A DNA stretch of 56,948 bases, the filler included, from Streblomastix strix (taxonomy: Eukaryota): NCBI GenBank assembly GCA_008636045.1. It is 3 parts of 3 records of this genome, joined end to end, with 100 filler letters (N's around TTAATTAATTAA, not from the genome) between each part and the next. Parts side by side here need not be neighbours in the genome. Positions count along the whole stretch, not along the records: positions 1 to 18,935 come from SNRW01000559.1; 2 more parts are not named here. One strand, written 5' to 3'. Both the position numbers and the translations under genes were made by a program. Below, in pieces: positions 932 through 44,370 of this stretch; position 1 is the stretch's first letter, and every line of letters starts with the position of its first letter. A model generated the notes under the pieces. The model did no database searches. It saw only the letters and a list, made by a program, of their open reading frames with translations, and was not told the origin of the DNA.

Positions 932-2107
932 ATGGCAGAGAAGTATAGAATGAATAAAGCATAAGTTTAAAATTTACAAGATAAATTATCAGTTGTATAT
1001 CTATCCAATCGTACAGTAGTTGAATTAAGAAATATTATAACTAATGAATTGCATCGTTTTAATTATTAAGGTCATATAACTGTTACTCCAGAAATAGTTG
1101 CATTTGTAAATCAAACTGTTGCTGAAAGAAATGGTTAACAATAATAATAATTGATATAAGATAAATAACAGTAATAACCTCAACTTTAACCAATAATAGA
1201 AAAAGTTAGTGAATTATAATAATAATTGAGCACTAATGATTACCATTAGAAATATGCATAAATCTAATCATAACTTACTAAGAATATTGATGATACTTTA
1301 AAAGAATTGAAGTAAACTGATAATACTGATGAAAATGGAATATTTGATCCTGTTAAGTATAGAACTAATTAAAAATAAAAAATTTGATGAAAATAGTCAA
1401 AAATAAATTATATAATAGTTGTTTCGAGCATAACAGTAATTAACTAATTAGATACATTAATTACAAGAGTCATAATAAACAATAAACAGTATATTAAAAG
1501 AAGAATTTGATTTGAAGGATTAGATTCAATAGATAATTGAGATTATTTAGAATTATATTCAATTATTAGCTGAATAATAATTGAAACACTAATAAAAATT
1601 AGATCAATAAGAATAGTTACATCAATAAGAGATACAAGAATTGAAAGATAGAATTGAGAAATAGAATAAAGCAGCAATATTAATTCAAAAGCATTATCGA
1701 AGACATTAAACACAATAACTTATGAAATAATCAGTAAATGCTGCAAAGGTAATTTAAGGCAAATTACGAAGGCATAAGCTATACGAATAATTATAATAGA
1801 CAATCATTAATTCAAGATATAAGAGATATAGTGAAAGACCATTAAAATTCTCAAATATCTTGAAGTAAAATTAGGAGCTAATGAATTCAATAGATGAATG
1901 AAAAAGCTTAATAGTGAATATTTTGTATTACACAAAGATCATTTTAGTGAAATAGATGTAACAAAAACAGAATAATAAAATAAAAATCGAGCAATTGATT
2001 AGAATGCATTTGTTATTTTTACAACTTAAAATCTATCAGATTATTATGCTTCATTATCTCAAGCACGCAAGAAATTCTTAAGGAAAAATGAAATTTATAT
2101 TAAATGA
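932..2107 (+). pseudogene. Polinton-like fragment: Gln-rich coiled-coil ORF with two IQ-like motifs, followed by the start of a pPolB N-terminal-like region
   Basis: Table-6 frame from ATG 932 (aaaATG context), with a poly-A frameshift near 1380. Motifs AAILIQKHYRRH and AAKVIQGKLRRH. Homologous to the inverted copy at 13880-15520. Confidence 0.6.
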
Positions 2108-2128
2108 CCACCTGAGACATTAATATAA

Positions 2129-2954
2129 TGAAAAAATATATTTATTTTGATTTCATTTTTACATAGAGGTACATAAATTATATTTATTTTTTATAATTTT
2201 AATATATGCTTACTTGCACTCTAGTAAATTAACTTACAAGGACTTTTCAAGACCTTTGTAATTATATTTTTATTTCTTTTTTAATATTATTCATCAAATA
2301 GATTCAATTGTTGTTATCTACCAAAATGGACTTATTTACATTTATCTATCAAACGGACTTCCGTGTTGTCTTTCAACAAACAGATATTATTTTTAAACTC
2401 TATCAACAAAACATCTTTATTTTATTCTATTTACAAATAATTTTGAAGATTAAATAATTTAAAGTAAACGAAACTTTATTTTTAATATTTTGAATATTGA
2501 ATTTTGGTATTTCAAAAATAACTAAATCTTATTTTTCGCTAAAAAATATTAATTCTCCATATTTTTTTAATAAATAGTTTTAATTTCTTGTGGACAGAAT
2601 TTTGAATATTTTTATTTTTCAATTTAATTAATATAATTTTAAACAAATTTTGATAAAAATTTTATTAACGGCATTTATATAATCATACAGTAATTTATGA
2701 ATAATTTTCAAATTTGTTATATATAACTTATAAAATTCTTTATAGATCAAAGAAGTTAAAAAAGATTTTTTATAAATAAACGCATAATCTAAACGACTAT
2801 TTTATTCATATAACATTTACATAAAATTTCTAACAATTTATAAAAAAAGATGTCATTTTTTCAATAAATATTTTCAAATATTCCGACAAACTATCATTTT
2901 TTCATCAACAAACTTTTTTCTTTCTAATATTAGTTCAAATCTTTACTTAAATAT
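2129..2954. repeat. ~825-bp direct repeat, a copy of the region upstream of the mariner transposase (10465-11289)
   Basis: Long near-identical stretches, e.g. caaatagattcaattgttgttatctaccaaaatggacttatttacatttatctatcaaacggacttccgtg, in both copies. Confidence 0.95.
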
Positions 2955-2969
2955 TTCCCTTAGAACAGA

Positions 2970-5150
2970 CGATTTCCTGATTAAAATGAAAGTCATTCAT
3001 CCAATATCAAAGAAAGAATGATTTGATCCAGCTCCAGATGTATCGTTTGATGAAGTTGATAAAATGAGGAAAGCTGAAAAGGTATATATGAATGAATAAA
3101 TAAATTACAATTAATTTTTTATTTAAAATTTATATTATATAATATTTATTTTTATTTATATATTATGTAGAAAATGTAATAACTAGTCTTGAGAATAACA
3201 TCCTATAAGGTTATGTTCTGTACCGGGAGCTTCACTCCCTCCTTTTATTACGGGTGCGATTCCAATGTGTCGCAGTTTCCTAAAGAACAAGAGCTTGTCA
3301 AATGAGTACGCGAAGTAAAGCCAAGGAACGTCATTTCACAATCGACGAACTGCGCCGTTACCAACTTCGTGCAGACGCTATCGATGATAAACTCAGGAAC
3401 CACGTGCTGCGAAGCACTAGCTGCAAGGACTGCAAATTTGACATATCATGATCGGATTATGACGCTGAACTTGACATTTTAGTCAAATATTTCGACAATG
3501 AATCTTAAGAAGATATGAATATCAGCATTGGTAAACGAAGAGAGTCTGGAAAAATATAACAAATTTAGAATGAAGAAAGTCAAAGTTCCAACTAAATCCA
3601 GCAAACATCAAGCTTGTCCTCCCCACAACTATTACCGATGACCGCATAGAAAAGAAAAAAGATAGAAGCAATAAATATTAAAGCAGGAAGAGCAGCAGAA
3701 ATGGGAGTGTCCGATCAGTACCAACCACTCTGATTTAATTTTAAAAAAATATAATATGATTTAAGACGAACTAATGCTGGAGTTGCAAAATCTTCAGAAA
3801 TGCATCTTAGCTAATTTGTGCGAAAAATTTTTTGGATCGTGAGCCATCGGCAGTTTACATATGTTAATGAATTTTGCTTAATTTATTTTATTTAAATTTT
3901 ATTATTAGCAATATTAATATTTGTGATATTTTTAGGCACTGGCTCACGCGAAAACGAAGATTTTCTTTATTTTTTACTTTTCACTGCATCTAATATTTAA
4001 TTTTAGTTTTTTATGATAATTATTGTAAATAAACCATAAAATACAAATTATAAAATTTGATTATTATATTTATTTTGACAAAAGTGCAAATGCGCGAAAA
4101 TTAAAAAAATATTATCGCGAATCAGCATAGCATATATTATAAATTATCAATTTTATTATACAAAATTTTATTAATAAATACAAAGCATCAAATTCAATAT
4201 TAAATAATAAAAATAATTATATGAATGTTTTAAAAAATGGAAAATATAAAAAAAAATTATTCTCCATCGCTGGTGCCTAAAAATATCGCAAATATTAATA
4301 ATATTAATTAAAATATTTTTATAAAATAAAATAAATAAAATTCAGGAGCTTATACTACCTGACTCTGGATAGCGAACCAAAAAAAACTATTTTTCGATCA
4401 ACTTCGTCAAGGTGCATTTTTAAACATTTTACAATTCCAATTTTTTATAATTTTAAATCATGCTATATTATTTTAAAAAAAATAAGGGTTGTTGTTTGTG
4501 ATCGGATACCCCCAAATAAAAAACGGAAAGAAAAAAGAAAATTTATAAAAGATTCATAAAATTCTGATGACTGCTGACAATCGAATGAAGATGCAGATAT
4601 TGAGGTAAATGATGAAGACGATTCTGGAAAATAATCCTCATCAAGTCATAGCATGTCATCTGAATCTGAAAATAATAGAAAGCGATTCCGACTGGACTTA
4701 ACAGAAGATGTTCGCTTAAACTTAGAAAGGATAGGGAAAGAGAAAAAGGTAAACAAAAATATTGGAAGAATACTAACAAAAGCACTAGAAGATATAACAC
4801 GGAAGAACGGAAATAGTTCAAGCCGGTAAGATGGTTTCCAAGAGACATACAGAAAGAGTTTTTGAAAATTCAGTGGACAAAAACTATTGTGTAGTAAACA
4901 ATCAGTCCTAATGGAAAGAGTTTTAAAGAGCAAGGAGACAAATATGCAGATCTGTTACAGTCTGTAACTGCTACATAAGAATCAACTCTTGTTGCAATGT
5001 TAGCAGTAATTAATGAAGAATCAGAGTTTATAGTTCTGAAATAAGTTTATATCAATGCGACAATCACAGCTTCAATAGCTCAGAAGATGAGAGACATCCG
5101 GATTACTCATAGAATCAAAATACAAAGCATTAGCCTTTAGGCAGCCAACG
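2970..5150 (+). pseudogene. Decayed GC-richer ORF, possibly retroelement (DIRS-like) gag-type, interrupted by the MITE at 3703-4513
   Basis: Coding-like composition with scattered TGA and frameshifts. The frame can be rejoined across the MITE. It ends in the same terminal sequence as the remnant at 16155-16900. No diagnostic motif. Confidence 0.3.
3703..4513. mobile_element. Non-autonomous DNA transposon (MITE/foldback) with ~240-bp imperfect TIRs and a 4-bp AAAT target-site duplication, probably Sola-type
   Basis: Left end GGGAGTGTCCGATCA; right end (rc) GGGGGTATCCGATCA. The inner arms share attaatatttg(t/c)gatatttttaggcac. Flanks read gaaat|GGG and CCC|aaat. Confidence 0.85.
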
Positions 5151-5465
5151 TAGTTAACATCATTAAGTTATACAATAATCTACACTAATTCCTTGCACAT
5201 CTATAATCAAAATAATGATACGAAATAATTACCAAAAATGTTCAAAATTATTTAAAATGAATTTTAAATTTTCAATTTCTTTAGTAATGTTTAAATTATT
5301 GTTGTCATTTTTTTCTTATAAATGTTTAGCAGTATATAATATTAATTTATCATTTCTTTGTGAAATTTTATATTGTGGAACTTACAACGCGCTATTCATC
5401 TCATGTGATGATATTTACATTAATTGAGGATGAATAAATAAATATTTTCAGGCAGATTTTGGATC
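5085..5465. repeat. ~380-bp repeat with an inverted copy at 15761-16154; likely the terminal region of a retroelement
   Basis: High identity by eye. It produces the two near-identical spurious ORFs 5215-5427 and 15793-16023 in the track. Confidence 0.92.
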
Positions 5466-5699
5466 ATGTAATTAAACAAATGGTGATTTTCATTGTAGAT
5501 GACCATTTTTTGTTTTGTTAACTATATATAGCATATATAGTGCTGTTCCCTGATCTAGTTATTGCTCTCAAATACTCGCTCTAGGCTATGATACTGATTT
5601 TTTTACTTTTTTTTGCTGTTAGTAAAATCCAAATATATTATTTTAATAAGATCGATGATCTATTCATTTAAATTTATAAAACACATGTAAGTGAAGTGA

Positions 5700-6630
5700 T
5701 GGAACAATTAAGTCATCCAGAGATTCTTAATTTGATTTGCTAACTTCAGAGAATTTTAGACGATTTGGCACGGTTTCAACTCTTGATTAAAACGGTGAGG
5801 TGATTTTTTTCTCCTTTTCTGGACATGAAATAGTTGAAGAGAAAAGTTATGTATCTATGAAATGAAAGTGAAACTTTTATCTGAATCCCTTATTTGTCAG
5901 CTTATTCGCCATTTTAGCCAGTTTTGTACAATTGAACCTGTAACTTATAAATATAAATTTAAATATATATTAATTTATTATATTTATTAATATTTAAATT
6001 GTTTTCATACGTTAAAAACTTATACTGATTATTACTGCCAACTGCACGGCTTGCAATCAAGTCTGTCTCATTTTAAAAGAACTTTATCAACGAATCAATT
6101 TAGGAAAAGTCATACTTTAGGAGAATTTTTTTAAGTAACCGTAAGAAAAAACCGAATGCATTGTCGCATTCGTTTTTCCCATGAGATGGGACAAAGAAAT
6201 TTAAATCGAAAGTCAATCCTGCCCTAAATTTTAATTATTCGTTGATTAATTAGAATGTTAGTTGTTCATTATGGAAGTGTAGCCCACAGTCAGACCACCA
6301 CTTCATATAATTTATATTCTCAAAATCTTAATCAGCTAAAATTTGTTTAAAACATTTTAATGAGATTGATGCAGTATGTGTTAGGACTCTTGAAAATAAT
6401 GTAAATATTCTCTTAAAGGTTTATCCTTACGTGGGACGAATGCAGCAGATAAAGGAGATGCTGATTACAGAAATTTGATCGTAAAATTCCTTTCGCTCTT
6501 ATTCTCTTCTCTATAGAAGCTTAATATGTTCATTTTATTCTGCAATAATTACTGCATTACTTTGTTGAATGTTGTATATATCAGAACGCATTTGGTCTCA
6601 TTATTCTACAGTTTATCATTTGTGCATTAG
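5700..6630 (-). pseudogene. Sola(2)-type DDD transposase remnant, 5'-truncated
   Basis: Table-6 translation gives WWSDCGLHFHNEQ and FDLNFFVPSHGKNECDNAFG, with in-frame TGAs upstream and a probable intron at ~5938-6010. Confidence 0.7.
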
Positions 6631-6699: not shown

Positions 6700-8340
6700 T
6701 GAAATTGTTTCAACTCTTTCTAATCAAGACATTCCTTTTGCTATTCAAACTTCAACTGAATTTATAAAAGAAAGCTCTGTTCTGAAGGAAACAGAAAATT
6801 AAATTTAGTTATGTGCAGAATGATGGAATTAATTTGATTTAAGCAATTGGAAAGTAGAAAATCTAATTGAATTAAATAGAATTGATAAAGAAAATAAAAA
6901 GAAAAATAGAAGAAGAAGACATAATGAAAGATTTAAAGAAAGAGGTTCCGTTAAAATGCATATGATTGGTATAAAAACGAAGGGTTGCCTAAGCATGATA
7001 GTAGAAATTCTGAGCAATCAGAAAATGGTTATCTTAATTCTGCTGAAATAATTTATGTTTAAAATTGAGCAGATTTTATTCTTCAAAGAATACTATTCGA
7101 TGACTTCTAAATGAGTAGTAACACTGCACAAAATCTTTCGTTTTATTGCAATTTTTAATTCTTTATTGAAAAATGAATGATTTACTGGAGTATGCTCAGG
7201 CTGTTCAAATCATTTTCAAAACTATTTGCTTTCGTACAAGTTTCATAATTGCAATTCAACAGTATAGCAGAAAAACTGGTTGAGTCATAGCAAAGCACAG
7301 ATCAGTGTAACGAGTGCAATAATGCAGATAAGATTTTCTAAAGGATATAAATTAAGGGTATTTCTTTTAGTCAGTTAGCTGTGACAGAATAAAGAACTTT
7401 GCTTCTCTGAAAAAATCACATATAAAGAGCTGAGCACCAATAAGATTAATTACAAATTCAAATTGCACCGCTATAATTGAATGAAGCAACGTTCTAGATT
7501 GATTGTAAAGAAAACTTCGCTTTGGGTATCGATCATGACGCCGATAGTATCAGTTTCTTCCATAGAGCTCCAGTCACTTGTATTGCTGCCGCAATTCATA
7601 AAAGGTTGGGACATTCAATGATATAAAAGAAAATGATTACGATACTCTCCTCTGTTCTTAATCATTCCGTCACTTTTTCATTATTATGTATTTGAAGAAT
7701 GTTTGGGTTAAATTTCCTTTTTGAAGTGGATTCGTCAAATTTTTGGTCCGATGGTGGGCTTCACTTCAGAAATAAAGTGCAAATATGGATCTTATTTAAT
7801 GAAGAAGATCTATTAGTCAAAAATGTAACATTTGAAGTCAATTACACCGAAAACCACCATGGAAGGAGACTGTCCGATTAATTATCTGATAACAACGATA
7901 CTGGATTGTAGCACAATACGCCAAAAGAAGAGATCAAATTACTTGCAAGTCTTTCTAACGAACTTCATTTTTTCACCTTATAACAGGAAACAGTTCATTA
8001 TGACCCGTCTAAAGCACATGAAATCATAATCTATTAAAAATACATTATATATATAATATAATATAATATAAATAAATATAATAAATATTCAAAAATATTT
8101 TTTGTTATTTTGCTTTATTTAGACAGACTGGATGTTGAACGGTTTGAACTTCATGCTGACTGTCTTGTAATCGAAGGATTTAAGAAATTTTTAAACTTTG
8201 TGGCAGATGAAGAGGATATTGTCGGCAGACTACTAATTGGAGTTCCAGATAACGAAGAAATTAGATTTGCAATGAAGAGTATAAGTAGACATGTAAAAAG
8301 TATTCTTAAGTGATCAACAGTTCCAGTTGCTGATAAATGA
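6700..8340 (+). pseudogene. Sola(2)-type DDD transposase remnant
   Basis: TDQCNEC, DCKENF (7501), FWSDGGLHFRN and YTENHHGRRLSD, with stops and frameshifts. Clearly homologous to the adjacent minus-strand copy. Confidence 0.7.
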
Positions 8341-9744: not shown

Positions 9745-10459
9745 GAGGCTATATATTTACCGCGCAATTAAAATATTATATTACTTCGTTTAATTCAATC
9801 ATTAATAATATCTTAGAGCTGTTTTTCTGTTTAATGTGCGAACCAATCATCTACAAATGCTTGAATTCTTTCAAGTGCTATGAATCTTTAACCATCAATC
9901 GATCCTTTTAGTTCTCTGACATGCTGGTTAACGAATTATGTACTGAACCCAAGATTCGTCAGGAGTCAAAATGAACTCAAAATGTTATTTTCTTGCTTCA
10001 ATTAGCCATTCTTGTATTACTAATGCTTTTTTATATTACAAATTATTTTTGTGCTTTTGTTCATTTATATGGAACCAATTTGTCAGTAACACAAACGTGT
10101 TTTAAAACGTTGTGCAAACAATCTAAAATTGTACTTTTGGAGTGGTGCAGCTCCTAAGCAATTTCAGTAGCAATATAACTAAGGTCTTGTACTAAATATT
10201 ATCATATTTCTTCAGTTAAGCCCAAAATAGGAGGCTTATCCGATCGATATTTATCCTATTTTGAGAAACCCTCACCTTCGAATTTATCGAGCCAGTCCTC
10301 CACTATCCTCTGTTGAACAAAGTTTTAGGAATGCTGTTACTCAAGGACTTGAAATACCTCATTTGGATTTTTATTAATCAACGAATAATGTTTAGTAAAT
10401 GCTCGGAGCTCAAATTAATAAGGTTAACGTGGGTTCAGCTCTATTTTTTGTTTTTTCAT
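9745..10459 (-). pseudogene. Internally deleted Tc1/mariner (mariner-type) transposase
   Basis: ATG 10459; HTH region (WLDKFEGEGFSKQDKYRSDKP); LVPYK (WVPHEL-like); ILTPDESWV (first catalytic D). It then jumps directly to the C-terminal LKGSIDGQRF...VDDWF. Confidence 0.85.
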
Positions 10460-10464
10460 AGAAG

Positions 10465-11289
10465 TGAAAAAATATATTTATTTTGATTTCATTTTTAAAT
10501 AAAACATATAAATTTTATCTAATTTTTATAATTTTAATGTATTCTTGCTAGTAGTCTAGAAAATTAACTTACGAAGACTTTTCGAGACTTTTGTAATTAT
10601 ATTTTTATTTCTTTTTTAATATTATTCATCAAATAGATTCAATTGTTGTTATCTACCAAAATGGACTTATTTACATTTATCTATCAAACGGACTTCCGTG
10701 TTGTCTTTCAACAAACAGAAATCATTTTTAAACTCTATCAACAAAACTTCTTTATTTTATTCTATCTACAAATAATTTTGATGATTAAATAATTTAAAGT
10801 AAACTAAACTTAATTTTTAATATTTTGAATATTGAATTTTGGTATTTCAAAAATAACTAAATCTTATTTTTCGCTAAAAAATATTAATTTCTCATGTTTT
10901 TCAATAAATTGTTTTAATTTCTTGTAGACAGAATTTTGAACATTTTTATTTTTCAATTTAATTAATATAATTATTAAACAAATTTTGATAAGAAATTCTA
11001 TTAACGGAATTTATTTAATCGTACTGTAATTTTTTAAATAATTTTCAAATTTGTTGAATATTACTTATAATATTTTTTATAGATCAAAGAAATTGAAAAA
11101 AATTTTTTTAAATAAACGCAATATCTAAACGATTATTTTATTTATATAGCATTTACACAAAATTTCTAACCAATTATTAAAAAGATGCCATATTTTCAAT
11201 AAATATTTTCAAATATTCCGCCAAACTATTATTTTTTCATTAGCAAACTTTTTTCTATATAATATTAGTCCAAATCTTTACATAAATAT
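10465..11289. repeat. 5' non-coding region of the mariner element (second copy at 2129-2954)
   Basis: Direct repeat of 2129-2954; starts a few nt upstream of the transposase ATG. Confidence 0.9.
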
Positions 11290-13879: not shown

Positions 13880-15520
13880 CAAATTTTATATTAACAATCA
13901 ATATCCCTAGTGATTCCTTCTTTATTGAAGTGCTAAATTTTTTTATCCATTTTAGTGCCTAATGGTAGTCTATAAACAACAATCAAAAACGAAAATAGTG
14001 CTACCTATAATTTTGCTGAATCTTCATGAATACTGTCTTAATAATCTGATAATAAGTCAACAGCTTTTTATTTGAAATAGTCACTAGTTTGTCTATCTCG
14101 AATTACAGTGTTAGGTAAAGTCTTATAACTGTCATCAGCACTTGGTCTTATGTAAGAGTGATTATATTCATCTAATGTTTGCTAATGCATATAAACTAAT
14201 TACTTTTCTTAAAATATAGATCCAAAACTAATATATATTTTGTAAGGTTTCACTTTCTCCGATTCATATACCTAGTCGATTTTATCTTTCAGATGTTATA
14301 AGTCATAGATATGATTGAAATTGTGTTAAGTATATGGTTCTTTATTGAATATACCTTTTGATTTCATTAATTCATCAGGTAGTCCCTCAATACTAACTTC
14401 ATTCTTTTCTAAGAATTTCATGCGTGCCTGAGCTAATGTAGTATAATAAGTTGATAAATTCTATGGTGTGAAGATAACGAATGCTTTCTATTCGAGTTCT
14501 CTATTTTTATTTAATTATTCTGTTTTTGTTATACTTAGTTCACTAAAATGATCTTTGTGTAATCCAAAATATTCACTATTAAGCTTTTTCATTCATCTAT
14601 TGAATTCATTAGCTCCTAATTTTACTTCTAGATATTTGAGAATTTTAATGGTCTTTCACTATATCTCTTATATCTTGAATTAATGATTGTCTATTGTAAT
14701 TATTCGTATAGTTTATGCCCCTTTTATTTGCTTTAAATTACCTTTGCAGCATTTACTGAGTATTTCATAAGTTATTGTGTTTAATGTCTTCGATAATTCT
14801 TTTGGATTAATATTGCAGCTTTATTATTTTTTTTTAATTTATCCTTTAATTCTTGTATCTCTTATTGATGTAACTATTCTTATTGATCTAATTTTTATTA
14901 ATGTTTCAAATATTGTTCGACTAATAATTACTCATAATTCTAATTAATTTCCTTTGGCTAATGAACATCATTACTCGAAGGTTCAGAATGCAATGCATTA
15001 GCATTTATGTCGCCAACGGAATTAGTATCATTCAAATTACATTCTTCTCATAAAATTTCATTAATTGTTTGTAATGACTCTTGTAATTAATGTATCTAAT
15101 TAGTGATTTATTGCTATGCTTATATCAATTATTACATACGCCATCTTCGACCACTTTCATCAAATTTTTATTTGTAATTAGCTCGGTATTTATCAGGATT
15201 GAATAGATCATTATCATCAAAATTATCAGATTAGTTCAATTCAATTATGATAGCATTTATGCCGCCAACAGAGTTGGTATCATCAATACTTGTAGTTAAT
15301 TATGGTTATCGATCAATTACTGGTACCATTATTGGTTGCTATATTGGTTTTTATTATTATTATTGTTTAACTAAATTATTTACGAATGCCGTAATTGATA
15401 TATCATCACTTTTCGAACCTTAATATCCTTATTATTGAATATGATGTTATAATATATCGATTAATTACTATCTGGTTGAATGTATTATTGGGTTTTATAA
15501 ATGTAATGAATTAATTAAAG
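13880..15520 (-). pseudogene. Polinton-like fragment: IQ-motif coiled coil plus pPolB N-terminal-like domain, truncated before the catalytic domains
   Basis: The frame from ATG 14592 has VYESEKVKPYKIYISFGSIF ... VALFSFLIVVYRL ... DCQYKICWF. This parallels IYDAQHHQAFKIQFNFRIF ... IAIYSMPIKTYNL ... NNNCYM in the polymerase at 32218-36856. Confidence 0.65.
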
Positions 15521-15760
15521 TGTATAATTAGTCAAAAGATAAGTATTTGCTCATTTTACAATAGCAATAAATTAATAAAAAAGTTTGTTGATTAAAAGTT
15601 GATTTATAAATATATGTTTGTTTTTTCTTAATACAAAATGAGTAACAATTATGATGATGCCGAAATCCATGAAAAAGTCTAATCAAATGATAATAATATT
15701 GATGAATAATTAACATAAAAATAAAAATATATACTATTAAATGAATTATCTTTATTATTT

Positions 15761-16154
15761 GATCCAAAATCAGTCAGAAAATATTTATTAATTCATCTTT
15801 TACTAATGTAAATATCATCACATGAGATGAATAGCGCGTTGTAAGTTCCACAATATAAAATTTCACGGTGAGATGATAAATTAATATTATATACTGCTAA
15901 ACATTTATAAGAAAAAAATGACAACAATAATTTAAACATTACTAAAGAAATTGAAAATTTAAAATTCATTTTTTTAATAATTTTGAACATTTTTGAACAT
16001 TTTTTGTATTTATTTCGTATCATTATTTTGATGATAAATATATAAAGAATTAGTGTAGATTATTATATAACTTAATGTTGTCAACTACGTTGACTTCCTA
16101 AAGGCTAATGCTTTGTATTCTGATTCTTTGAGTAATCCGATTGTCTCTCATCTT
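15761..16154. repeat. Inverted copy of the 5085-5465 repeat
   Basis: Reverse-complement alignment by eye. Confidence 0.92.
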
Positions 16155-16900
16155 TACCATTTTGTGTAGCTTCATATTTTGATAATTTAACGCATATTTA
16201 TTTTTTCGTAGGTTTTAGTATAAAGTAATAAACGGGCATCAATCATATTTGTATTGGGGTACGATTTATTGTACTGTTAAAACCCTCACTCCAACGATTC
16301 ATCATTCTCAATACTCTTTCTTTCACTGTTTTGCACTCCCTAATCTCCACAATCGTTCAACGCCTCACTTACTACACTCTAAATACTCATTTCCATACTC
16401 ATCCACTACCTTCCTAATGGTATAAAATTGGAGCCAAAGGCTACTCTGCCTTGTTTTCCACGTCCTCTTGCCTGGAATCCTCTTTCCATTATTGCTTCTC
16501 TTCCATAACTAGATTAGCTCGCAGCATATAGTGTTTACTGTATCCTGAATAGATGCAACGGTTGGAATGGATAAAATGGTTGCTATAGATGCTATAGCAA
16601 CTGTGGTAACTGGATTTAAGATTGCGGATACGAGAATAGTCCCTTTTTGATTTGGAAAATGCAACTAATCTACCTTCTTATGCTCCAGATACCTCTTGAC
16701 ACTTTGAGTACTATCATCAGAGAATATTTCCGCTGGCAAAATACTACCATCTACTACTCCTATCAGCTTCCTTGGTGCATTTGCAAGTTTTCTCAGTTGT
16801 ACAACTGCATTTACACATAAACACAGCGTTGTGTAAGCATGTGCTATCTGCACAATGTTATCTTGACCGCCTAGCTCATTCCCTATTTCAACCAGATATT
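16155..16900 (-). pseudogene. Retroelement-like (DIRS gag-type) remnant
   Basis: GC-richer coding-like stretch AHAYTTLCLC...EIFSDD, then an RG-rich ERGFQARGRGKQGR. It abuts the shared terminal repeat. No RT or recombinase motif seen. Confidence 0.3.
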
Positions 16901-20440: not shown

Positions 20441-22613
20441 AATAAACAATGCTAGTTTCCATTAAACATTCTACGTTTGCTGCATAATCATTTTATTGGT
20501 TATATTATTTAATCGAAGAATTATAATATTATCATTTTGACAATAATGCAATGAAAAAAAAATTACATAATTATCAAACAATTTCGCTCTTTTTATTTTG
20601 AAAATAAATAATAGAATATTAAAAAAAAAGAATAATAATTTAAAAAAAATCAGTTTCAAAAAAATCTTAGAATATTGCATGAGAACTAAGCAGAATAAAT
20701 AAATAGCATACATACATTTAATTTTATTTATAGCGAAGAATAAGTCAATCATTCAAATTTTGAAGATTTCATACATTCAATTTATTCTGCTTATATACGA
20801 TCATTAAATTATATTTATCATTTAATATTCTTCTTTTTCATATTATTATTAGGTCAATCAAACTATATACTTCTTTAATTTCTACAATTGTAATTGCCCG
20901 AATTGGTGAGATTGGTAGAAATTGGTGATGTAGCTGATTCACTTCTAATGGACCAAAATATTAAATTTGAAGAAGGCCTATCTAACTTCAAAGCAGATAG
21001 AGGAACAAATAGAAATAATAATATAGTTAAATTATTTCTTAGGCTATTAGTTTTGTATTAATACCATAAAAAATTATTTTTCTAAATTGTTTTGCTTCAT
21101 TATTTTTGTATTGTTTTAATTTAAATAAAATTTTTTATATATATAATTTTTATGTTTCTGGTATTAATTATCATGAGTTATAATATTTCTATAAAGAAAT
21201 TTAGTTTTCTGATGAATTGAATTGAATATTGATCCAAATTAATGCTGTGCATTTATATAATTCTTTAAAAATTATTTTTTGCAATTTTCATTTGAGACTC
21301 AGAGACTGTCTTTAATTATTATAAATGATTTATTTAATTCTGCTATGAAAGTGGTATCTAAATAAACAAAATATGAATTAATATTTGATTCAATTTATCT
21401 AAGAAAAGATAGCAAAAATGTCCCATTTTTTAAAGTATTAAAATCGATCTCAGTTTAAATTTTATATCCAAAAGATTAAAATCTATCATACATCTATACT
21501 TATCTATAATATAAGCAAAATTTTTAAATATTTACATATATGATAATAAATTCACACTTTATTTCTAAAAAATATAAATTATGCTTAAATATGCTGCAAA
21601 AATCGCTTAAAAATGCTGTTAAATCGTTGTAAAGCACAGCACATTAAATTCTCGATGAAAATTAAATATTTTTTTTAATTTTATAACGATTCATCAAATA
21701 ATTCTATAACATATATTATTTTCATCAATAATGACACTAAGTACATATGTAGGCGGGGAGTAAATTGAGCACTAAAAATCATCTTTTTTAAAAAAAACTA
21801 ATAATTCAGACTAATAAACAATAATAACGATACATTTTAAAGAATAAAATTTATAATTTGTTTAATTGATAAGAATTATTAACTCAAATAATAAAATAAT
21901 TGCTTATTGACGGACAAAAATTTTGGCTTTTTTTTACAAATTTATTTATTGGACTATTTTAATAATAGCCCTTATAATTTTGCTCAGCGCACGTTTAGCG
22001 CTCTTAAAAGCGTTTTTGTCCAACACTATTGGTATTATAAAAAAGTTCTTGAAATTTGTACTCAAAGTTATTACCGGAATGCTTTAAACAGATATTGATT
22101 TTTTTGACAGTAAATATTCAAAACAAACATAATGTATAAGCTTCGAACAAATATCTAGTGCCTTTCTATTTAATAATATGTTAGATAGCCAGATCAAGTG
22201 ATATCTGAATTTTCAGAAGCACTAGAAACTTCAACCACTTTATTAGTCACCAAAAATTGGATTTTTCTACTTTTAAATACTTTAAAGGTTATATTCCAAA
22301 TTTTTTATTAAAAATACTATTTGATAATAAGACAAATAAGTAGCATAGAATGAAGAAGTTTGTGGTAAGTTCAAAATCGTATTTATTATAATCAATTTAT
22401 CCGCGATTTTGAACTTTTTTCGTCAATTTGCGAAAATCCCCAGAGCGGAAGCATATACATTAGTATGGTTCCTTTAATCATAGGAAAATGAACAAAATGA
22501 TGAAATAGACAAAGCGTGAATAAATTGATTATAATAAATATTGTTTTGAACTTACGGCAAACTTTCTTCATGAGCAATGCTAATTAATTATTAAAAATAA
22601 ATTAATGAGGGTT

Positions 22614-22853: not shown

Positions 22854-23471
22854 TCAATATAAATCAAAATCATTGTATTCTTATTACTATTCTTCTTGGG
22901 GTTATTCTTGAATGATTTATTAAGGTTCCTGTTAAATTTATTATGGCTCTTCCATTTCAACTATCTATTTTGATTATTTGTTTCGTTTTGCTTTCAATTT
23001 ATATTTCTCTATTTGTTTGACAGCATCTTAATGTTATTGTTTAATAAATGAATTTTCAGTTCTCAACCTGATTAATTCTTCTAAATCAAGTTGAGGATTA
23101 GTGTAATTAATTTATGAAGTTTTTTATATTTTTACTACACTTTTTCTAATTTACTTCTTTAATGGTTTTTCTCGTACTTCGCTTATGGAATCATCACTTT
23201 CATTTTATTCATCTTATTGTTCTTAAGATATAAAATCTTCATCATCAATTTATTTTTAAGATGTTTTTTAAACATTTTTCTTTGGAGCAACCCCTCCTTT
23301 AGCTTATAACAGTAATTTATTCTACTATGTTTAAGTTAATTTTTTAAGTATCTTTTTCCTTTCTTCGAATGCTTTAATTTCCTTATGAATTTGGATGACA
23401 TATCCGTTGTCAAAGTATTCAATATTTGTTCCTTTCTCTATTAAATTCTTCAATGCGTGTTGTAAGTCCAT
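22854..23471 (-). CDS. Viral ORFan, 205 aa, K/E/Q-rich
   Basis: Open table-6 frame MDLQHALKNL...EYNDFDLY*. Confidence 0.8.
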
Positions 23472-23494
23472 TTGAATAATTTTAAATTAGGAAA

Positions 23495-24244
23495 ATGATA
23501 AAGGGCATAGAAAGAAACTAAATTCGCATGTCAGAATCCAAAAAATAAATGTCTGAGATTAAACATAAAGAATTAACGGATGAAGATAAAATAAGATTGC
23601 AATTGATCGATGAAGCTATCAGTAGGATTAAATCAATGCCAGCAGTCGATGAAACGACTAAAACCGAAGGTTCTGGCATAAATGCTAAACCTAAAGAAAA
23701 TGAAACATAAACCTAAAATGAAATTATTACATCAACGCATGAATAATTAATCCTTACAGAATAAAAAATTACTAAATATATGAGTAAATATAATAAAGAT
23801 AAATATAAACAAGTAGATAGAACAACTGCATAAGTTGAACCAGATGAAGTAGTTATAAATACTTATCTTTCTCATCCAAATCTCGCTGTAATGAAATTCA
23901 TCATAGAATGCTTATGGAAGACAGTAACTACAAGAAAAAGAGGAGATGATTTCATACTTTCATCAGAAAATTTTATTAAACTTTGGCCATTAATTACTTA
24001 AGAAAATGAAGATGATATTGAAATAGTATTAGAAGAACCATTGATGCAATCACATTCATGCATAGGTAAATTATATAAAAAGAAAGATTTGATTCGTGTG
24101 ATGGATGTATTAATTAAAAACGTTTGTATATCAGTTATTGATAATGTACTTTTTAACTCTATTGAGAAATTATATAGAATCAACAAGGATTTCGTTCGTT
24201 TATCTGATGCTCCTACATCAGAGATTACCAAAGATGATTTTTGA
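23495..24244 (+). CDS. Viral ORFan, ~231-249 aa (alternative ATG at 23549)
   Basis: Open table-6 frame that includes the track ORF 24041-24244 as its C-terminus. Confidence 0.8.
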
Positions 24245-24739: not shown

Positions 24740-24792
24740 TGACTGAGCATTTATGCCCGCCAACGATGTTGGTTATTATTTTTGCAATAAAA

Positions 24793-30788: not shown

Positions 30789-31181
30789 TCAAACAATTTT
30801 TTTTTATGGCAAATTTAACATTTTAAGATAAAGGATGTATCTCCAATGAGTAGCTAATTCCAAATCTTTATTTGATATTGCTTCATTCAGAAATGTTTCG
30901 ATTTATTCAACAAAAAATTACGACCAATGTATGCTAGGTTAATTCTTATCCATTTTTCTTTTGTAAAAGTATTGTATAATGTAAATCGTTATATTTAATG
31001 GGACCAATACTATATTAAAATAACTCCATAATGTTTTTACAATATTAACAGTGTCCCAGAATTTCTCCGGTATGGATACTTATATGATTGATGTTATAAA
31101 ATTAACGCCATAGAACATGTAATTCATTATCCCCATGATTAACGATAGCAATTTCATTGCCGCCGTAGGTAGTATGGTCAT
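30789..31181 (-). CDS. Small viral membrane protein (2 predicted TM helices), 130 aa
   Basis: LLSLIMGIMNYMFYGVNFITSII and LWSYFNIVLVPLNITIYIIQYFY, followed by KRK. Confidence 0.7.
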
Positions 31182-31197
31182 TTTATTATTTTTGAAA

Positions 31198-32217
31198 ATT
31201 ATATTATAAGAATTATAAGATATAACATTTACTAATCAGGATCTATTGAACGAATATAAAACTAAGCCATTAACGAAGAATTCATTGTTCCTGATTAATG
31301 TAAATCATTATATTGTGGGAGCTGTTGGAAGTGGTAAAACAACATTAATGTGCAAGCTAATTGTGATATATAAAAAAATCATTAATCCATTCATATAATA
31401 CTTCTCGAATTATGGTGCAGATGAAACTAAGGCATTAAACCTAAACAGTAAGAACATTAAATTAACAAATATGACTTATGGAGAAGCAATGACATTTCTA
31501 CCTGAATTTGATGAGATAAAATACTCTACTAAAGTGACGTATACATGGTATAAGATGAATGAATAAAAATAATCATACACTAGCGATTTCATTAAACGAA
31601 TGGAAGAGTAAATCCTATAAAATAATGAGATAAAAAAGAATGAAAAACTTAATGATTATCTTAATAGAATTGCTAAACTATTCAAATAAAAAGTAATTGA
31701 AACCATTAATACATACAGTTAATCAACCAAGATATTGAGATTTGAAATTCCTGCATTAATTCAAAACGTTAGTTACCAAAAGAAATACAAAATTACTGAT
31801 GATGCATAAAATGCAGTTATTAAAATAATGAAAATACCTATATTAGAAAAAGCTTAATTACTCAATACATTAATGCTCTTGGATGATATTGGATCTAATG
31901 CAGACATCTAACGATTCAGTTCATAATTATCTAAAACAGTTACCCATCTCATTAGTGATTCTCGTCATTCAAAAAATACTATTTTCTTTATAGCTTAACT
32001 TCCAACTTATTTGTTTAAGACAGCTATGATATTAACCCATGTAATTTGCTTAGGTATAAACATCGGTGAGAGTGATCTTAAACAGGTTTATGAGGAAAAT
32101 TCCATATAAAATTTAAATTTTGATGAATTCATGATATTATAAAGGTCATTAAAGAAATATGACTTCATCATTCTGAACAAATGGATTGGTTAGTTCTAAA
32201 TTTTGAAAAATAAATGA
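31198..32217 (+). CDS. A32/FtsK-HerA-type DNA packaging ATPase (~339 aa; no ATG before Walker A)
   Basis: Walker A YIVGAVGSGKT, Walker B LMLLDD, arginine-finger/Gln motif DSRHSKNTIFFIAQ (Q encoded by TAA). Confidence 0.92.
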
Positions 32218-35200
32218 TCAATTAAATGTGAAATCTTTTGAAGAAAGGCCGAAAATAAATGGACAACATGATTAATTCTCTAGCACTGGCATTTTCGTAT
32301 GGATTCCCGTGATTCTATTTTTTTCGATAGATAAATAACTTATCTAATGATTCTTCTAGCCCAATCTCATATTAGTGCATTTCGTTATTTTTCCTTCATT
32401 AATGCAATCGATTATCTATGCTTTAGTGATTTTGTTAGTCTTCTAATTAACTCCTTTTAGTTTTATTTTTGAATTTCCATTGTAATTTGTTTCAATCATA
32501 TAATTTTTAGGAGCTAATGCCACCATTGATATTCCTTATCTTTCGATCGATAATCCAAGGATTTTATTTTCATCATATACATCGCCTCTAATCGTGGGAA
32601 AGTAATACTTAGCATTATCGTTATAAAAATCTCGATCACTAATCACAGCTTTAAATTACTAAGGAAAATCTTCATTAGGATTACCATTAATCGCCCAATA
32701 AGCTGAATCAGTATCTCCTTCAATAAAATGTATTTTATTCATATCTAAGCATTTATACATGAAATTACATATGAAATTTAGATACCAATATTTAACGTTA
32801 TCCAATACAAAAAAAAGCTACTTATAAAGGTGTTTTATAGTTACAGTGTTCTGGATTCATTTATACAATATAACTGTCTTCAGATATCTTTTGTTCATCC
32901 ATGAAGGCGTTAGATCTAATTGCTCTTTCTGTCTATTTCTTATTCATTATTTTTACTTCATGATATTTCTCAGTGTTCATTCCATCACTACCATAAGAAC
33001 TATTCATAACAATCTTAAAGAATTATTCCTATCCATTATTCTCATCTAATTTTGCTTCTATTCTAATTTTAGTAAATTCCTTAATAAATGAATTGAATTA
33101 ATCATGTTAATTGAATAGCACTTTCTATTTTGCATCATCTATAATAAAATGGCAATCATCAATCAAGAACCATTGGTAATATGAGCTAAATGCCATGAAT
33201 TCTCCCATCGTTGATGTAAGATTAGTTAGTTTACGTTATTTTTGATCAGAGCTAACATTATTGTTTTTCATATGATTATACATATAACTACCGATAGTTC
33301 GTTCATCTGTTGTGAATTCATAATTGCTTAGGATTGGTGGAAAATTAATGATATCGTTAATGTAATTCTAATCAATGTGGCCTTTAACTTCTGCTAGGAA
33401 TTATTGACCATCAGATGTAAATCTCTTTTTAATATTAATTATTCGTAATATTGTTTATTTGGAATGGTCATTGTTAGCAGAGCTCAAACCTACGGTTTCT
33501 CCCATAATCTTACCTGTTTATGATCCATACATATACATTTTTCCACCTGTACACTTAATAAATTAATGTGGTTCTGATGACATAACACTAGGATATAATG
33601 AATTGAAATCAACACCAACTACATGAGTAATTCTATGATCAGTTGTCAGAACTGTTACCTTCTTATTTTACTTATCATACCATAATCGTTTTATAAAATC
33701 AATTCCTGATCTATTGACTCGATGCATTACATTTGATAATCCACCTGCGATCCATTTTCTGATTAAATGATATACATCAATATCTGTTAGATTAGTTGGT
33801 GATCATCTTATCATACAATATTTATGTAATTATATGAACAATTTACTTATATTTTTATCTTTATCCGAGCAGAAGCAATTACAGTATAAACAACAGGGCT
33901 AAACATTATCTTTTGAATGACTCTTTGAATTATCGATTCTATCTAATGTTGGCTTATTATTCCATGTAAATTTACATCCACATATTTTGCAGTTAGATTC
34001 ATTGAATAATCGTTTGAAATATTCATAATCACTATCTTTTATACTATTTTTTATATCAGTTTTTTTTATATTTATCTTATTGAATATATCCTTTCACTTT
34101 GCTCTACAAATATTGCTCAGTTAAATGAAATTTCTACGATTAATCAGTAAAATTAGGATATATACCATTAATGTCAAAATCTTCATACGCTTTGGCATAT
34201 TTGATAGCATTAGAGCATGCAGCCATACTCATGAAACTGAACATATCAATCTTATATTAAAATTATAAGCTAATCAATGTCATTAGTGGGTTAACCATTA
34301 CATACGTATCTTATTCATCAAAGAATTGTAGATAATCTCATCTATTTTTAAATCGTTTTGCTTCATCTAGATAAATCTAATAATCCTTCTAACTAATTTT
34401 GGTTTTCTTTAATGATGAGTTGAAATCTTCCATTGAAAATGGCTCTGATTTACTTAGTACTTCATTAACGTTATCAATGTTGAAAAATTCATAGGGAAAT
34501 AAGCCTTATTTATCGTCGTAACCATCGCAAAAATCTTTTGCTGCTTACTTTAATTCCGTAGGTTAAAGATACGTTAACATATCAACAAGTTTCATCTTTA
34601 AATTCAATTTTTTATGATGCACAATTACCAATTTAACTGTTGATGGGCTACCAGTATAATTACTAATTGTCCAATCTTTGCATTACATATACGATATGAT
34701 AAATAATAAATCAAATCTTGAGCTATTGAACCCAACAATTGGCACTTCAATTGAATATGGAATTTTCTCATCAATTGTCCCAGCTGCTGTTAAATATTAA
34801 TTATCAGCATTAACTTATTCTGCTTCTTTAAACAATTAATTTAACCATTAAACTATGAAATCGTTCCCATCCTATTAGCTAAAGAAGATTTTCTTAATAT
34901 CTTATTTGTTACGGATAGTTGATGCAACTGATAGGGGAAATAATTCATACATTTAATAACTTGATTTAACAAATTTTTTATTAACGATTTTAGGAACAGT
35001 TTCAAGATCATACGTGATGAAATATTATGTTGGTTTATATTCATTTTCTCTTCCATTAGCTAATAGATATTGATAAGTTTTATTCTGCATGATATGTGGA
35101 CAATATGGTTTTTATACATAATCCAGTTTAACTTTCTTAATTATTTTTCCACCATTATTCTCACATTTAATATTGTGTTTTTCATAATCTCTTGAGTAAT

Positions 35201-36856
35201 TTTTATCTTTAGGATCGAACGCTTTTGAATTACAGTGTGGGCAAAATTACAATCCCATTAATGCTTATTTATTAGCTATGGCAAATGCATGCGCTATCTT
35301 ATTATTTTCCCATATCGATTCAACAACTAATATATCAATTGTCTTAGATTATTATTGCACGATTGTTTCATTTTAATTAATTTCATTATAATCGTTGATT
35401 TGTTCACATTAATGCATAATCTACAATCCTCTATAATAATTCTTATGTTCATTATCGTAGTAGTAAATGTCATGGTTAATTTTTAACTTTTATGATACAA
35501 TTTACGCATATTTAGTTATATCTAATCCATCAAATACTTTCAATAAATCAGTCATTTATCTACTCTTTGAATCGAATGGTAGCTCTAATACTTAAACTAA
35601 TAGTTACTTGCTAATGCTAATAATTTCATCAGGAAAATAACGTTTTTCCTTCGAATCAGAATGTAATGCTTTTGCTATTGCTTCCATATAGCAGTTGTTA
35701 TTATTTCCAGTATTTTATATATAACATTTTTGCGACCATTACAATGAAAATCGATCAATTCTTTCATACTAGCTCCAACAATTTATGGTTATAGGTTATA
35801 CGTTTTGATTGGCATGGAATAGATAGCTATATATAGTTATCTTGTGCTATCTAATGTGAAATTCTATTTATTAATTATATCAGCTTTAATGTATTGCTAA
35901 TACTCTTCAATGTCGTCTTAATTTTATATGACTTTAGGAGAATGTTCTTATATACGTGTATCTCTAGCTAAAATATATCCATAATCAACTTAAACTTAAT
36001 CATTCTAATCATGTTTATATTCTTCATAAAAGATTCTAAAATTAAATTGTATCTTGAACGCTTAATGGTGTTGTGCATCATAAATTTCATTAACGTACAT
36101 CTCTATACCGGATAATGATTAGATAACATTATTATAATGTAATTGACTTAATTATCCCCGCTGCTCATCCATTTAATTTATTATACGTTCACGATTGAAG
36201 CCTGTTTTTGCGCCATCAACTGTATCAATAAATTACTCCATTTTCTCTGGTTGAAAATACAATATAACGCCTGCATCATTATCTATTTAATTAACGTCTT
36301 TTCCTTTATACTGATTAATTTTATCTTTAATCTCTTTATTTTATTAAGCAATAATTTGGTATTGTAGATTAGCTTCCTATTCTTCTTCCATTATTCTTCT
36401 GGCTTATTCCTATTCTTCTATGATATAATTAGTCCAGAAATCGTTAGCTTATTATTACTCTTATTATTAACGATATTCCTATAAATCTTATTCATAATAA
36501 TTAGAATGATAGTGTGTTAAATCTTAATGTAATTATCAATTTTATTCATCTATTTCATAATAGAAGATATCAGCTTATTTCAGCAATTATTCTCTACGAT
36601 ATTCTTATAAATCTTATTCATATTGATACTATTTGAAATGCAATCTCTGATTGATATTCAATGAATTATATTAATGTATTTATTTTAGATGTGATTTCAA
36701 TTCACTATAGTTACTTCTTCCTGATTTCTTATAATCAATCTTGTTTAAATATTCAATGAGTTATTGTTTAAGCAAATATATTTTTAATGATTCATTAACG
36801 TTTTTGTTGTTGATTTTGAGCAATTTAACGATCTCCGCTTTCCTTAGTTAAACCAT
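32218..36856 (-). pseudogene. polB: Protein-primed family B DNA polymerase (pPolB) with C2HC zinc finger and HNH-like insertion; several frameshifts and TGAs
   Basis: ExoI YDLET, ExoII GFNSSRFD, GLFPYE, PolA VDFNSLYPS, PolB KIVMNSSYG, PolC EGDTDS, KLKGV; CPHC...HNIKC; TLDRIDNSKSH..DNV..CC..CN. Confidence 0.95.
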
Positions 36857-41827: not shown

Positions 41828-44370
41828 TCACACCAACTTACAGAAAAGCGTTAGCAAAGACATACGTTATCCGCTAATCCCCATGAATCTTTTTGCTTGT
41901 GAGAACTTTTTCTCAATTCCAGCTTCTGAAGAAGGAATTGCAAGAACACTATCTATAAAATCGATGAAAATTTTAATCATTGGATTTGATTTATTTTGAC
42001 ACTGCCAATATCCGATTTAGTTATCAATGAGCATCTCATCATCCATATCACCATATTTTCCAGCCCAAAAAAGAACAGCTTTATTTGTTAAATATTATAA
42101 TAACATTAATTTTTCGTCATTCAACGTTTAATGTATCATTTAAATTACTTGTTTTTATTTAAGATCATCAATTGTACTTGTAAGAAATGTAGCTGTTGGT
42201 GAATTAATACAAGATTTACCTGTGATGATTTGATTGTGAATTGGTGTACCTGTAACAGAAAATTTAGGAAGCAATTCCGGTTAAATATCTCGAAGGATTT
42301 GGATTCTTTGAATTGAACTATTAGATATTCTTTCAATTTATTAAGTATCTTCAATATCTTTTTTCATTAGAGAATTTGAAAATGGCGATTCTTGTTTGAT
42401 TTCATATTATTAATTAATCTACGAAACAATTTATTGATCTTCTATTTCATTCAAATCTAGACCGTTGATGATTAGTAGTTTCCAATTTTATTCATAATCT
42501 GATTTACGTAATTGATATGTTAAATGGTTTATTTCTTCCTCATTAAATTGGATGTGATGACTCAATTTCAACCTTATATTTAGAGTTTATTCCTATTATT
42601 TAGCTTAATTCTGATTTTATTAATGTCTTGATAATGCGTAATCTTTCAATTTTTAATGATAAAAGTAAATAGAAATTCTTTTAAGGTAATCTAGCACCTT
42701 GAATTCCAATTGATCTTTTGAACAAGAATAAAACATGGAGCAGTGGGATCTGTTATTTGAATTTGAGATATGGCTAGTTGATATGCATTTTCAATTTTTA
42801 ATTTAAGTATTCTATGCTCGGGATACTTATCAGGTTTCTGAGGAATTTGAATTGATTTGATATCAAAGAATGGTATAGATGGAATAATTTCTGAAACATA
42901 ATACTTTGATACAAAAGTTAATTTTAAAGACTAAGTAGTAGAACTGATCATTGCCAGATTTCTCTATTGCATCAATTTCTTCCCTGAGTAACAAAATGCT
43001 AAATCACAAGCAAATAAATCTATATAATCATCACCAAAAATGTAAAAAAATATTTTCTTGCAAAGTGTTTTGATGAATGAGAGCCATGGTTCATAGCTAA
43101 AGATTGTAACTAAAAGATGATAATAATGAATAAGTAGAAAAACAGCTAATGGGAAAACATTTGAGACTTGTGATGTATTAGACTCAAGAACACTCGTTGT
43201 TTCAAATAAAGGCTTAGTCAGATAGTAAATATGTGTAGTAAATTTAACGGAATTATATTTTCTACTTGATTTCAATTATATAATTTCTTCAGAATGATCC
43301 ATTACTTGCTCTGCAACGAGAAACATTCCAATCCATCTTGTTTTGCCATAAGATTTTAAATAAATACTAAGTTCATTAGAATTCGATTATGAATGTAATG
43401 AACTTATATCTTCTTCCATGATTATTACTATAGCATAAATGTCGTAATGCATATCAATAGCATTTTTTAGATCTCTGTCAAGAAAATGATTAGCACATCT
43501 GTTTTGAATTAGTTTTGACAACCGTTAGGGAAGAAATATAGAGTAGTTTTGCTTAGAAAATGGTGATAATGCTGACGTGAACGATGAACCACCATTTGTT
43601 GTGGCTCCTCCAACCCCAATTTTGAATTGCTGCAAATATATTATTGTTTAAGTAACAAGTTTTGACAATCCATCAACTGTACAAAGTCTAGTATATATTG
43701 ATAAAAGTGTTGGTTCAGGAGAAATTAATGGATAAACTAGATACACTGGAACAGCATGAATATGAGACATCATTCCTGCTTCAAGAATAAGAGTGCCTTT
43801 CTTATTATAAAATACTCTCAACCTTTCAATACATTTCGAATGTGCTTTCTAAACCATTTTTTCTTTTAGTTTATAAATAGTTATCTTTGGTTATAAAGAT
43901 TCAGGAGTTTCATTTGGAAATGTCTTTTATAATCCTAATGAAGTTTTGATTACTCTAAGCATTTAAGACGAAATGCACACTTCAAATGGTACTTCGTGAA
44001 CCTTATGCAGATCTTCAAGTACATCAATAATAGAATCTGAACTTAACTGAATTTTCAAACTCTGTAATTATCTTTTAATAATCATGTTCGATTGAATCAA
44101 AGTTATCTAGCCTACTATTTCATTCACAAAAATTTCCTTCATATTTTACATAGCAATGAATATTTCGGAGGCCTGACTTTTTGCTACTTATCAATTCCCC
44201 TTCACTATTACATTTTGAATAGACGCAAACTTTATAAACACCTTTGCAGAAAAACTCACATCTAATTCAAAATTCTTTCGCTAAAAACGAATGAAGTGTT
44301 ACTTAAATGTATTCAATATCGCATTGAGGTTCTGATTCTTAACCGTTTAGAAAGGAAAATCTTTCCTACG
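41828..44370 (-). pseudogene. hAT-superfamily transposase, near full length, decayed
   Basis: RCANHFL (CxxH), KTRW, VLES and the dimerization motif LAIPSSEAGIEKKFS. Several TGAs and frameshifts. Confidence 0.85.

Follow-up and report, generated by a model that had tools for sequence, protein, structure and literature searches.

What are the short GC-rich segments that interrupt a Polinton-type polymerase gene in DNA labelled Streblomastix strix, and how did they come to be there? The window, meaning the whole stretch of 56,948 nucleotides analysed here, consists of three contigs joined by N runs. An earlier note on this DNA had described 27-nt double hairpins inserted in frame in one of its genes and had taken them for mobile elements. 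We report that such units are inserted and recur, that they have a two-hairpin form, that the 27-nt units have T and A at their boundaries, and that their lengths at coding sites are divisible by three. Based on these observations, we regard the 24-36-base double hairpins as likely gene-less selfish elements, copied to new places during the replication of Polinton-type viruses.

Genetic code and host genes

Under the standard code the window holds a single ORF, of 100 residues, while under code 6 it holds many. The homologues nearest to its proteins carry the Streblomastix strix label, and a report on S. strix endogenous viruses gives them the same genetic code as the window ORFs (PMC10120064). 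The sequencing runs that carry window DNA come from termite gut, which makes an oxymonad the likely host. Four features set the scene:

13330 (about)..15554, minus strand: host gene B, the 5' part of a Polinton-type protein-primed polymerase ORF in which TAA/TAG=Gln; a pseudogene
932..2142, plus strand: paralog A, empty at both insert sites; also broken
32233..36391, minus strand: contig-2 Polinton-type polymerase, in several pieces (Pfam PF03175, E 4e-12; tblastn)
33870..34005, minus strand: HNH-like Cys/His motif inside the contig-2 polymerase, near 33949; a candidate mobilising nuclease

The host element has a predicted protein-primed family B polymerase, as indicated by the PF03175 match in contig 2, with gene B tied in by tblastn: P0001 matches gene B at 14768-14634 and 14436-13891 (73-77%) and, beyond that part, also matches the contig-2 polymerase. 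The Polinton-like gene of the earlier note is accordingly a polymerase ORF, but one that is now broken, by a TGA stop (15048-15050) and by an interruption of the frame around 14630-14590. Given this decay, any selection on its inserts lies in the past. As to the other hallmarks of a Polinton-type virus (capsid, integrase and terminal inverted repeats), 19 of the 21 ORFs scanned had no Pfam match, the ORF at 30931-32217 contains a Walker A motif, and a search for a long terminal repeat in contig 2 found none. With tblastn, no polymerase was found in contig 3.

Other repeats and fragments lie in the window. Stretches resembling DDE and hAT transposases by their motifs, without a Pfam match, occur at 5776-6591 (minus strand), 7699-8313 (plus) and 41828-44151 (minus). 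An 840-bp repeat (91%; 2120-2954 and 10455-11289) starts where paralog A breaks off and is possibly a non-autonomous element, and a 54-nt inverted repeat (85%) at 22356-22564, with 101 nt between its arms, lies just left of the contig-2 virus genes.

Two inserts in gene B and their empty alleles

Gene B carries inserts at two sites, made up and flanked as follows:

15252..15278, minus strand: alpha unit, 27 nt, with T and A on either side, adding 9 in-frame codons; its double hairpin is the best preserved
15000..15026, minus strand: alpha unit, 27 nt, decayed, first half of a 54-nt block; 24/28 identical to the 15252 unit; z +0.6
14973..14999, minus strand: beta unit, 27 nt, AATGC-N3-GCATT, CTG spacer and decayed second hairpin; the block's second half; z -1.3
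15027..15032, minus strand: AATGAT before the block, native to gene B; found in an empty allele too
14967..14972, minus strand: AATGAT after the block; both copies are kept in one empty allele (joint 14948 to 15026)

That GC-rich inserts are missing from the paralog at 932-2107 was borne out. In an anchored alignment against paralog A, 15252-15278 faces a net gap of 27 nt, exactly the length first claimed for this insert; MAFFT misses the gap because the 5' flank has diverged. The 54-nt block at 14973-15026 faces a 57-nt gap. The best-preserved unit does have two mini-hairpins, CCAAC-N3-GTTGG and GCA-N4-TGC, and folds with z -2.6 (3/200 shuffles). The block had been described as two tandem 27-nt units between AATGAT copies. 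Its 54-nt length and the AATGAT on both sides are as described, but its halves belong to different sub-families, both decayed.

Empty alleles of the block are found in contig joints. Among the joints listed (15 of 45 and 12 of 15), at least nine skip the block with known letters between, six of them with a net difference of 57 nt and the other three with 54, 58 and 45 nt. The 54-nt empty allele retains both AATGAT copies and represents either the state before insertion or a clean loss. A single sample, possibly that of the window itself, is the source of all these joints, and they therefore document other virus copies that lack the block rather than an independent replication. Read depth, treated throughout as weak evidence, falls to 571 over the block against 3,858 and 5,693 alongside; run X4 gave no cover and run X2 a small share.

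AATGAT was considered as a 6-nt target duplication; this would require a 3-nt loss in addition and is seen at no other site. With most empty alleles differing by 57 nt and one by 54, the duplication is not established. Nor does AATGAT recur as a boundary; what recurs is TA, around 9 of the 10 27/28-nt units, the exception being the unit at 24746.

Contigs from X1 and X3 run on behind 15290 into a perfect beta unit bounded by TA, in an arrangement unlike the 54-nt block. A low-depth X2 contig at 15250-15290 seemingly holds two alpha units in tandem.

Unit families across the window

Eleven units were located by ungapped scans, by self-BLAST and by a covariance model trained on six alpha units; all of them lie within or next to genes derived from Polintons, in a sample that barely includes host DNA. 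Seven are alpha (15252, 15000, 5132, 16080, 23660, 24746 and 31147), three are beta (14973, 5105 and 16107), and the one at 33474 represents a separate 24-nt family. In addition to those in gene B, they are:

5105..5158, minus strand: alpha+beta 54-nt block in one copy of a 400-bp repeat
16080..16133, plus strand: alpha+beta 54-nt block in the second 400-bp repeat copy; alpha half z -3.2
23660..23686, plus strand: alpha-like unit, 27 nt, with an AACC-GAA-GGTT arm, in frame in ORF 23453-24244
24746..24773, minus strand: alpha unit, 28 nt, probably intergenic, not bounded by T and A
31147..31173, minus strand: alpha-like unit, 27 nt, flanked by T and A, read in frame within ORF 30789-31181; covariance model E about 0.009, a rough value
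33474..33497, minus strand: separate-family unit, 24 nt, 8 codons in the contig-2 polymerase

The unit at 31147 is the only match below E 0.01 on which the covariance model had not been trained, and contig 3 gave none below that value. In a unit-against-unit comparison the similarity of the block's two halves to each other fell below the listing cut-off; the 54-nt block is thus two different 27-nt units, one from each sub-family, and not a pair of twins. The claim that the same motif sits at unrelated sites in the contig-2 virus applies to the alpha and alpha-like units at 23660, 24746 and 31147, whose flanks are unrelated, but not to AACC-GTA-GGTT at 33487, which is part of the separate 24-nt family. 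That family's unit at 33474 is missing from 50 of 54 covering homologues. Arms and spacers are nonetheless held in common between families, the AACC/GGTT arm by 23660 and 33474 and the CTG spacer by 23660 and beta.

The mobility proposed by the earlier note is supported because units recur at sites with unrelated flanks: the 60-nt flanks of 15252, 23660, 24746, 31147 and the 14973 block are mutually unrelated, while those of 5105 and 16080 are related and belong to one repeat. The left flank of the 14973 block shows a weak likeness to those of the 5105/16080 blocks (3 and 5 of 300 shuffles); the 54-mer, then, may not have moved as one piece. GC content is 41-50% in the alpha and 24-nt units against 21-32% in their flanks, and 26-50% over all units. 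The T and A at the boundaries fit a TA duplication and a blunt insertion equally.

Inserts at coding sites, including one from the distant virus described below, measure 27, 54, 27, 27, 24 and 36 nt at the DNA level, all divisible by three, with an empty site observed for only four of them; the 24-27-nt units amount to 8-9 codons and contain no stops. At 23660, 24746, 31147, 5105 and 16080 we saw depth dips only and no clean empty site.

The two copies of the 400-bp repeat (89%; 5084-5475 and 15751-16154) end about 20 nt past the 54-nt block, and the repeat seems to be a piece of the gene facing away from gene B. It was considered as a viral terminal repeat or origin, a reading that found no support.

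Folding, covariation and enrichment

Folding is clear for the units at 15252 (z -2.6), 16080 (-3.2) and 24746 (-1.8) and weak for the others; of ten individual window units that were folded, just two have z below -2. Across six alpha rows, 89.6% of stem cells are paired, compared with 82.8% after shuffling (12/500), and three cells show double changes. Two stem pairs change on both sides, a result matched by 102 of 500 shuffles in an alignment of six related rows, one of them misaligned; covariation in the alpha stems is marginal. The hairpin loops are mostly GNA or its complement, and GNA-type loops are very stable in single-stranded DNA.

Where motif frequency was compared with composition, the units exceeded expectation. 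The alpha 3' motif, a pattern derived from the units themselves, occurs 12 times against 2.96 +/- 1.71 expected (0/100 shuffles), and structure-only scans were modestly enriched (6 vs 0-3; 7 at 6 loci vs 0-3; 3 vs 0-2). An Rfam search returned one chance-level match (E 0.34). Further double-hairpin-like words at 16821-16845, 45869-45897 and 43761-43789, outside recognised viral genes, are unrelated in sequence and may be chance.

Recurrence in related polymerases

Protein homologues offered a wider view of filled and empty sites. The set comprised 140 proteins, 135 labelled S. strix and five window ORFs, and a minority insertion was defined as 6-12 residues that no fewer than 70% of the homologues covering the site lack. 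P0012, probably the window's own locus, was left out, and P0054-P0056 and P0156-P0158 were left out of the insertion counts. There were 22 minority insertions in the 140 proteins, with a G/A/S/T/P/V share of 0.62 vs 0.27, and a separate comparison added three, each with 3-4 homologues that lack it.

Translations of window units match 4 of 24 non-self inserted segments (0/200 shuffled unit sets each). The insertion in P0178 agrees with unit 23660 at 8/9 residues and is absent from 53 of 56 homologues, and that in P0017 agrees with unit 15252 at 7/10. Unit 33474 is matched in P0011 (9/10 residues) and in P0058 (7/9; absent from 34 of 35 homologues). The remaining 20 segments match no window unit and are known from protein alone. 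Another insert is common to P0010 and P0119 at two sites (7/8, 0/1000 shuffles), and the insertion in P0083 is a plain local duplication. Together with the empty alleles in joints, homologues and the paralog, these minority insertions identify the segments as polymorphic rather than ancestral and fixed.

In P0011 and P0058 the 24-nt family replaces one Asp with Glu...Asn, as it does in the window copy when set against most homologues; this would imply a target of GA|Y, not TA, for this family. Identical inserts fill one site in several copies (three copies at residue 536 of P0036, seven at residue 226 and two at residue 281), which suggests that carriers kept replicating after the insertion. 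Of the 14 site clusters on the P0036 model (pLDDT 92), which take in five further events and the distant virus L002, seven lie in coil, six at the end of a structural element or no more than two residues from it, and one in a 7-residue helix; none is in a catalytic motif. Protein data are blind to frame-breaking inserts and hence mute on frame bias.

Minority insertions of 8-11 residues, known from protein alone, also occur in four polymerases from ENA and JGI sources (P0063, P0117, P0149 and P0153). A profile of the three 54-nt block translations found three matches among 1.84 billion representatives, all unrelated repeat proteins, a result that speaks neither way on copies in host genes. An exact look-up of 10 window ORF variants found one, a singleton. 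Unit DNA patterns had no match in metagenome contigs or in viral contigs, and no polymerase relative was found among the viral contigs.

Double hairpins in a distant virus

Seven metagenome loci (L001-L007) have 37-44% identity. One of them, L002, is a 3.6-kb Polinton-type contig that uses the standard code, and it contains five GC-rich double hairpins against 0 in 10 shuffles:

289-328, 1711-1739 and 2327-2435: L002 double hairpins

L006 has one against 0, and the other five loci are without clear excess. In L002, a 36-nt perfect double hairpin (z -4.2) with a 4-nt direct repeat lies in frame in an intact polymerase ORF. It is absent from 43 homologues, and its position is the main insertion hotspot of the S. 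strix-labelled copies. The covariance model matched nothing below E 0.2 in L001-L007, so the L002 insert represents a different sequence family. The in-frame hairpin shares its arms, and their order, with the one at 2398-2435 on the opposite strand, but the 3-nt spacer is inverted, a pattern like that of flip/flop hairpin isomers.

A model of movement and its alternatives

Protein-primed polymerases replicate by strand displacement. For the Polinton-type virus, such replication would expose single strands on which the hairpins could fold; a nick at a short target might then be filled by template switching onto the element, and the insertion would leave a duplication of 1-4 bases. A later unit could land in the TA left by the first, giving a 54-nt block, and hairpin arms may be swapped between families. 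Replicating viruses would retain only those inserts that keep the frame at tolerant positions.

The nick may be made by the HNH-like domain inside the polymerase, a speculative proposal that we consider rather improbable as it stands. Pfam HNH had no match in the window polymerase copy; it was found in P0068 (E 2e-4), with P0071 and P0046 weak and below cut-off. The strict form of the HNH-like Cys/His motif is present in 49 of 227 proteins. The main alternative mobiliser is an HUH transposase.

With such a transposase the units would be minimal peel-and-paste elements, similar to PATEs, one hairpin forming the left end and the other the right end of an IS200/IS605-like element that an HUH transposase moves as single-stranded circles and inserts between T and A without duplication. 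Two hairpins, the lack of a terminal inverted repeat and a single-strand host replicon are consistent with this, GAT precedes 3 of the 7 alpha units, where elements of this type would insert after a fixed 4-5-mer, and a blunt insertion between T and A is indistinguishable from a TA duplication. Against it, the L002 insert has a 4-nt direct repeat, whereas IS200/IS605 elements make none according to PMC7290912; the stems measure just 3-6 bp, the families do not share a target, and an HUH transposase is absent from the window ORFs scanned. We consider this route improbable.

Somewhat less probable again is a reading in which the hairpins are 3'-end or replication signals of the virus, acting in cis and occasionally miscopied into genes, with no self-propagating lineage. 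The position of four of the five L002 double hairpins just past gene ends keeps it alive, one of these has its spacer and arms in common with the in-frame insert, and giant-virus transcripts are reported to terminate at hairpins (PMC4402537). The window units, however, lie mostly inside ORFs, a fixed donor copy at gene ends was sought in the window and none found, and several families of differing sequence insert repeatedly.

We think it quite unlikely that the units are footprints of a larger TA-targeting transposon or IES-like remnants, with ends joined and the middle lost. The T and A boundaries of 9 of 10 units would fit, as would the size, since the shortest Paramecium IESs are 27 nt, and contig 1 has the DDE-transposase-like fragments mentioned above. 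Yet terminal inverted repeats are missing from the units, the window yielded no longer element that ends in this way, and the 24-nt family and the L002 insert have other boundaries.

Local manufacture of each insert by polymerase snap-back or template switching, with nothing moving, is very unlikely. Short palindromes can arise in this way, one hotspot holds several different inserts, and the P0083 duplication is itself local; near-identical units between unrelated flanks and the GC contrast of the alpha and 24-nt units speak against it, and for these two families a local origin is already largely refuted. Least credible of all are tiny introns or otherwise skipped segments removed from mRNA: the 24-nt unit has a donor-like GTAGGT and a branch-like word, but GT...AG ends are absent from every unit, the lengths are divisible by three and free of stops, and the endogenous viruses are described as intron-free in PMC10120064.

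Relation to known elements

Paquin et al. 2000 reportedly dealt with double-hairpin elements of fungal mitochondria. Like such elements in Allomyces and in Schizosaccharomyces (PMC10085805), the window units are short and gene-less, consist of two adjacent hairpins and differ in presence between relatives. They differ in belonging to nuclear-integrated Polinton-type viruses and in lying mostly in frame in protein genes (code 6). The fission-yeast elements were screened at more than 75% GC in 35 bp, well above the 26-50% of the window units, and are located in the mitochondrial genome, either intergenically or within rRNA genes (PMC10085805).

Yeast GC clusters such as GC42 are comparable in their presence and absence between relatives and in the merging and shuffling of units, and are described as having short direct repeats at their ends (PMC4478555). 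Merging is seen here in the alpha+beta block and in the arm and spacer shared between families. As for a flanking repeat, there are T and A, fitting a duplication or a blunt insertion, around 9 of 10 units, and the 4-nt repeat in L002. On the constraint of stems relative to loops, a further trait of GC clusters, the alpha rows gave the 12/500 and 102/500 shuffle values stated above. The window units are smaller than GC42 (24-27 nt), have TA instead of AG/ACT, and are viral rather than mitochondrial; GC42 sites are reported as intergenic or intronic in the same source.

Rickettsia palindromic elements likewise insert in frame in unrelated genes, add a conserved peptide and form several families, but measure about 150 bp and reside in a bacterial chromosome (PMC10969869), as against 24-36 nt here. 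PATEs of the IS200/IS605 group, which consist only of hairpin ends and are moved in trans (PMC7290912), are similar in form; the direct repeat in L002, the much shorter stems and the missing HUH transposase among the window ORFs scanned set the units apart. The Pandoravirus salinus MITE is also a non-autonomous element that has colonised a virus, and is assigned to a DNA transposon family (PMC4495683), whereas the ends of the units are not the inverted copies found in Tc1/mariner-type MITEs. The T and A around the units would fit the TA duplication of such MITEs or a blunt insertion.

The analogy drawn at the outset is therefore fair in the sense that the units work like fungal double-hairpin elements, yeast GC clusters and Rickettsia palindromic elements; they are not members of these groups, failing the defining features of location, GC content and size. 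They comprise at least three families, a composite block, empty alleles and a second host lineage (L002). At the level of titles and opening lines of abstracts, with most subscription journals outside its scope, a literature search found no description of such elements in Polintons.

Implications

More tentatively, and as a possibility that we hold to be doubtful in its full extent, Polinton-type viruses of gut protists may be parasitised by structure-defined mobile DNAs of 24-36 bases, among the smallest known, whose arms recombine into new families, which are mobilised by the HNH-like domain of the polymerase, and which supply loops of 6-12 residues across hosts with different genetic codes.

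The movement of mitochondrial GC clusters and double-hairpin elements is still described as an open question (PMC4478555). A small viral replicon with few enzymes and many copies per genome provides natural comparisons of empty and filled sites, making the target rule and the enzyme directly testable. Elements of the double-hairpin type would not be confined to organelles or bacteria, units of 24-36 nt would give a lower size limit for mobile DNA, and the same units may be one observable way in which a viral polymerase acquires new loops.
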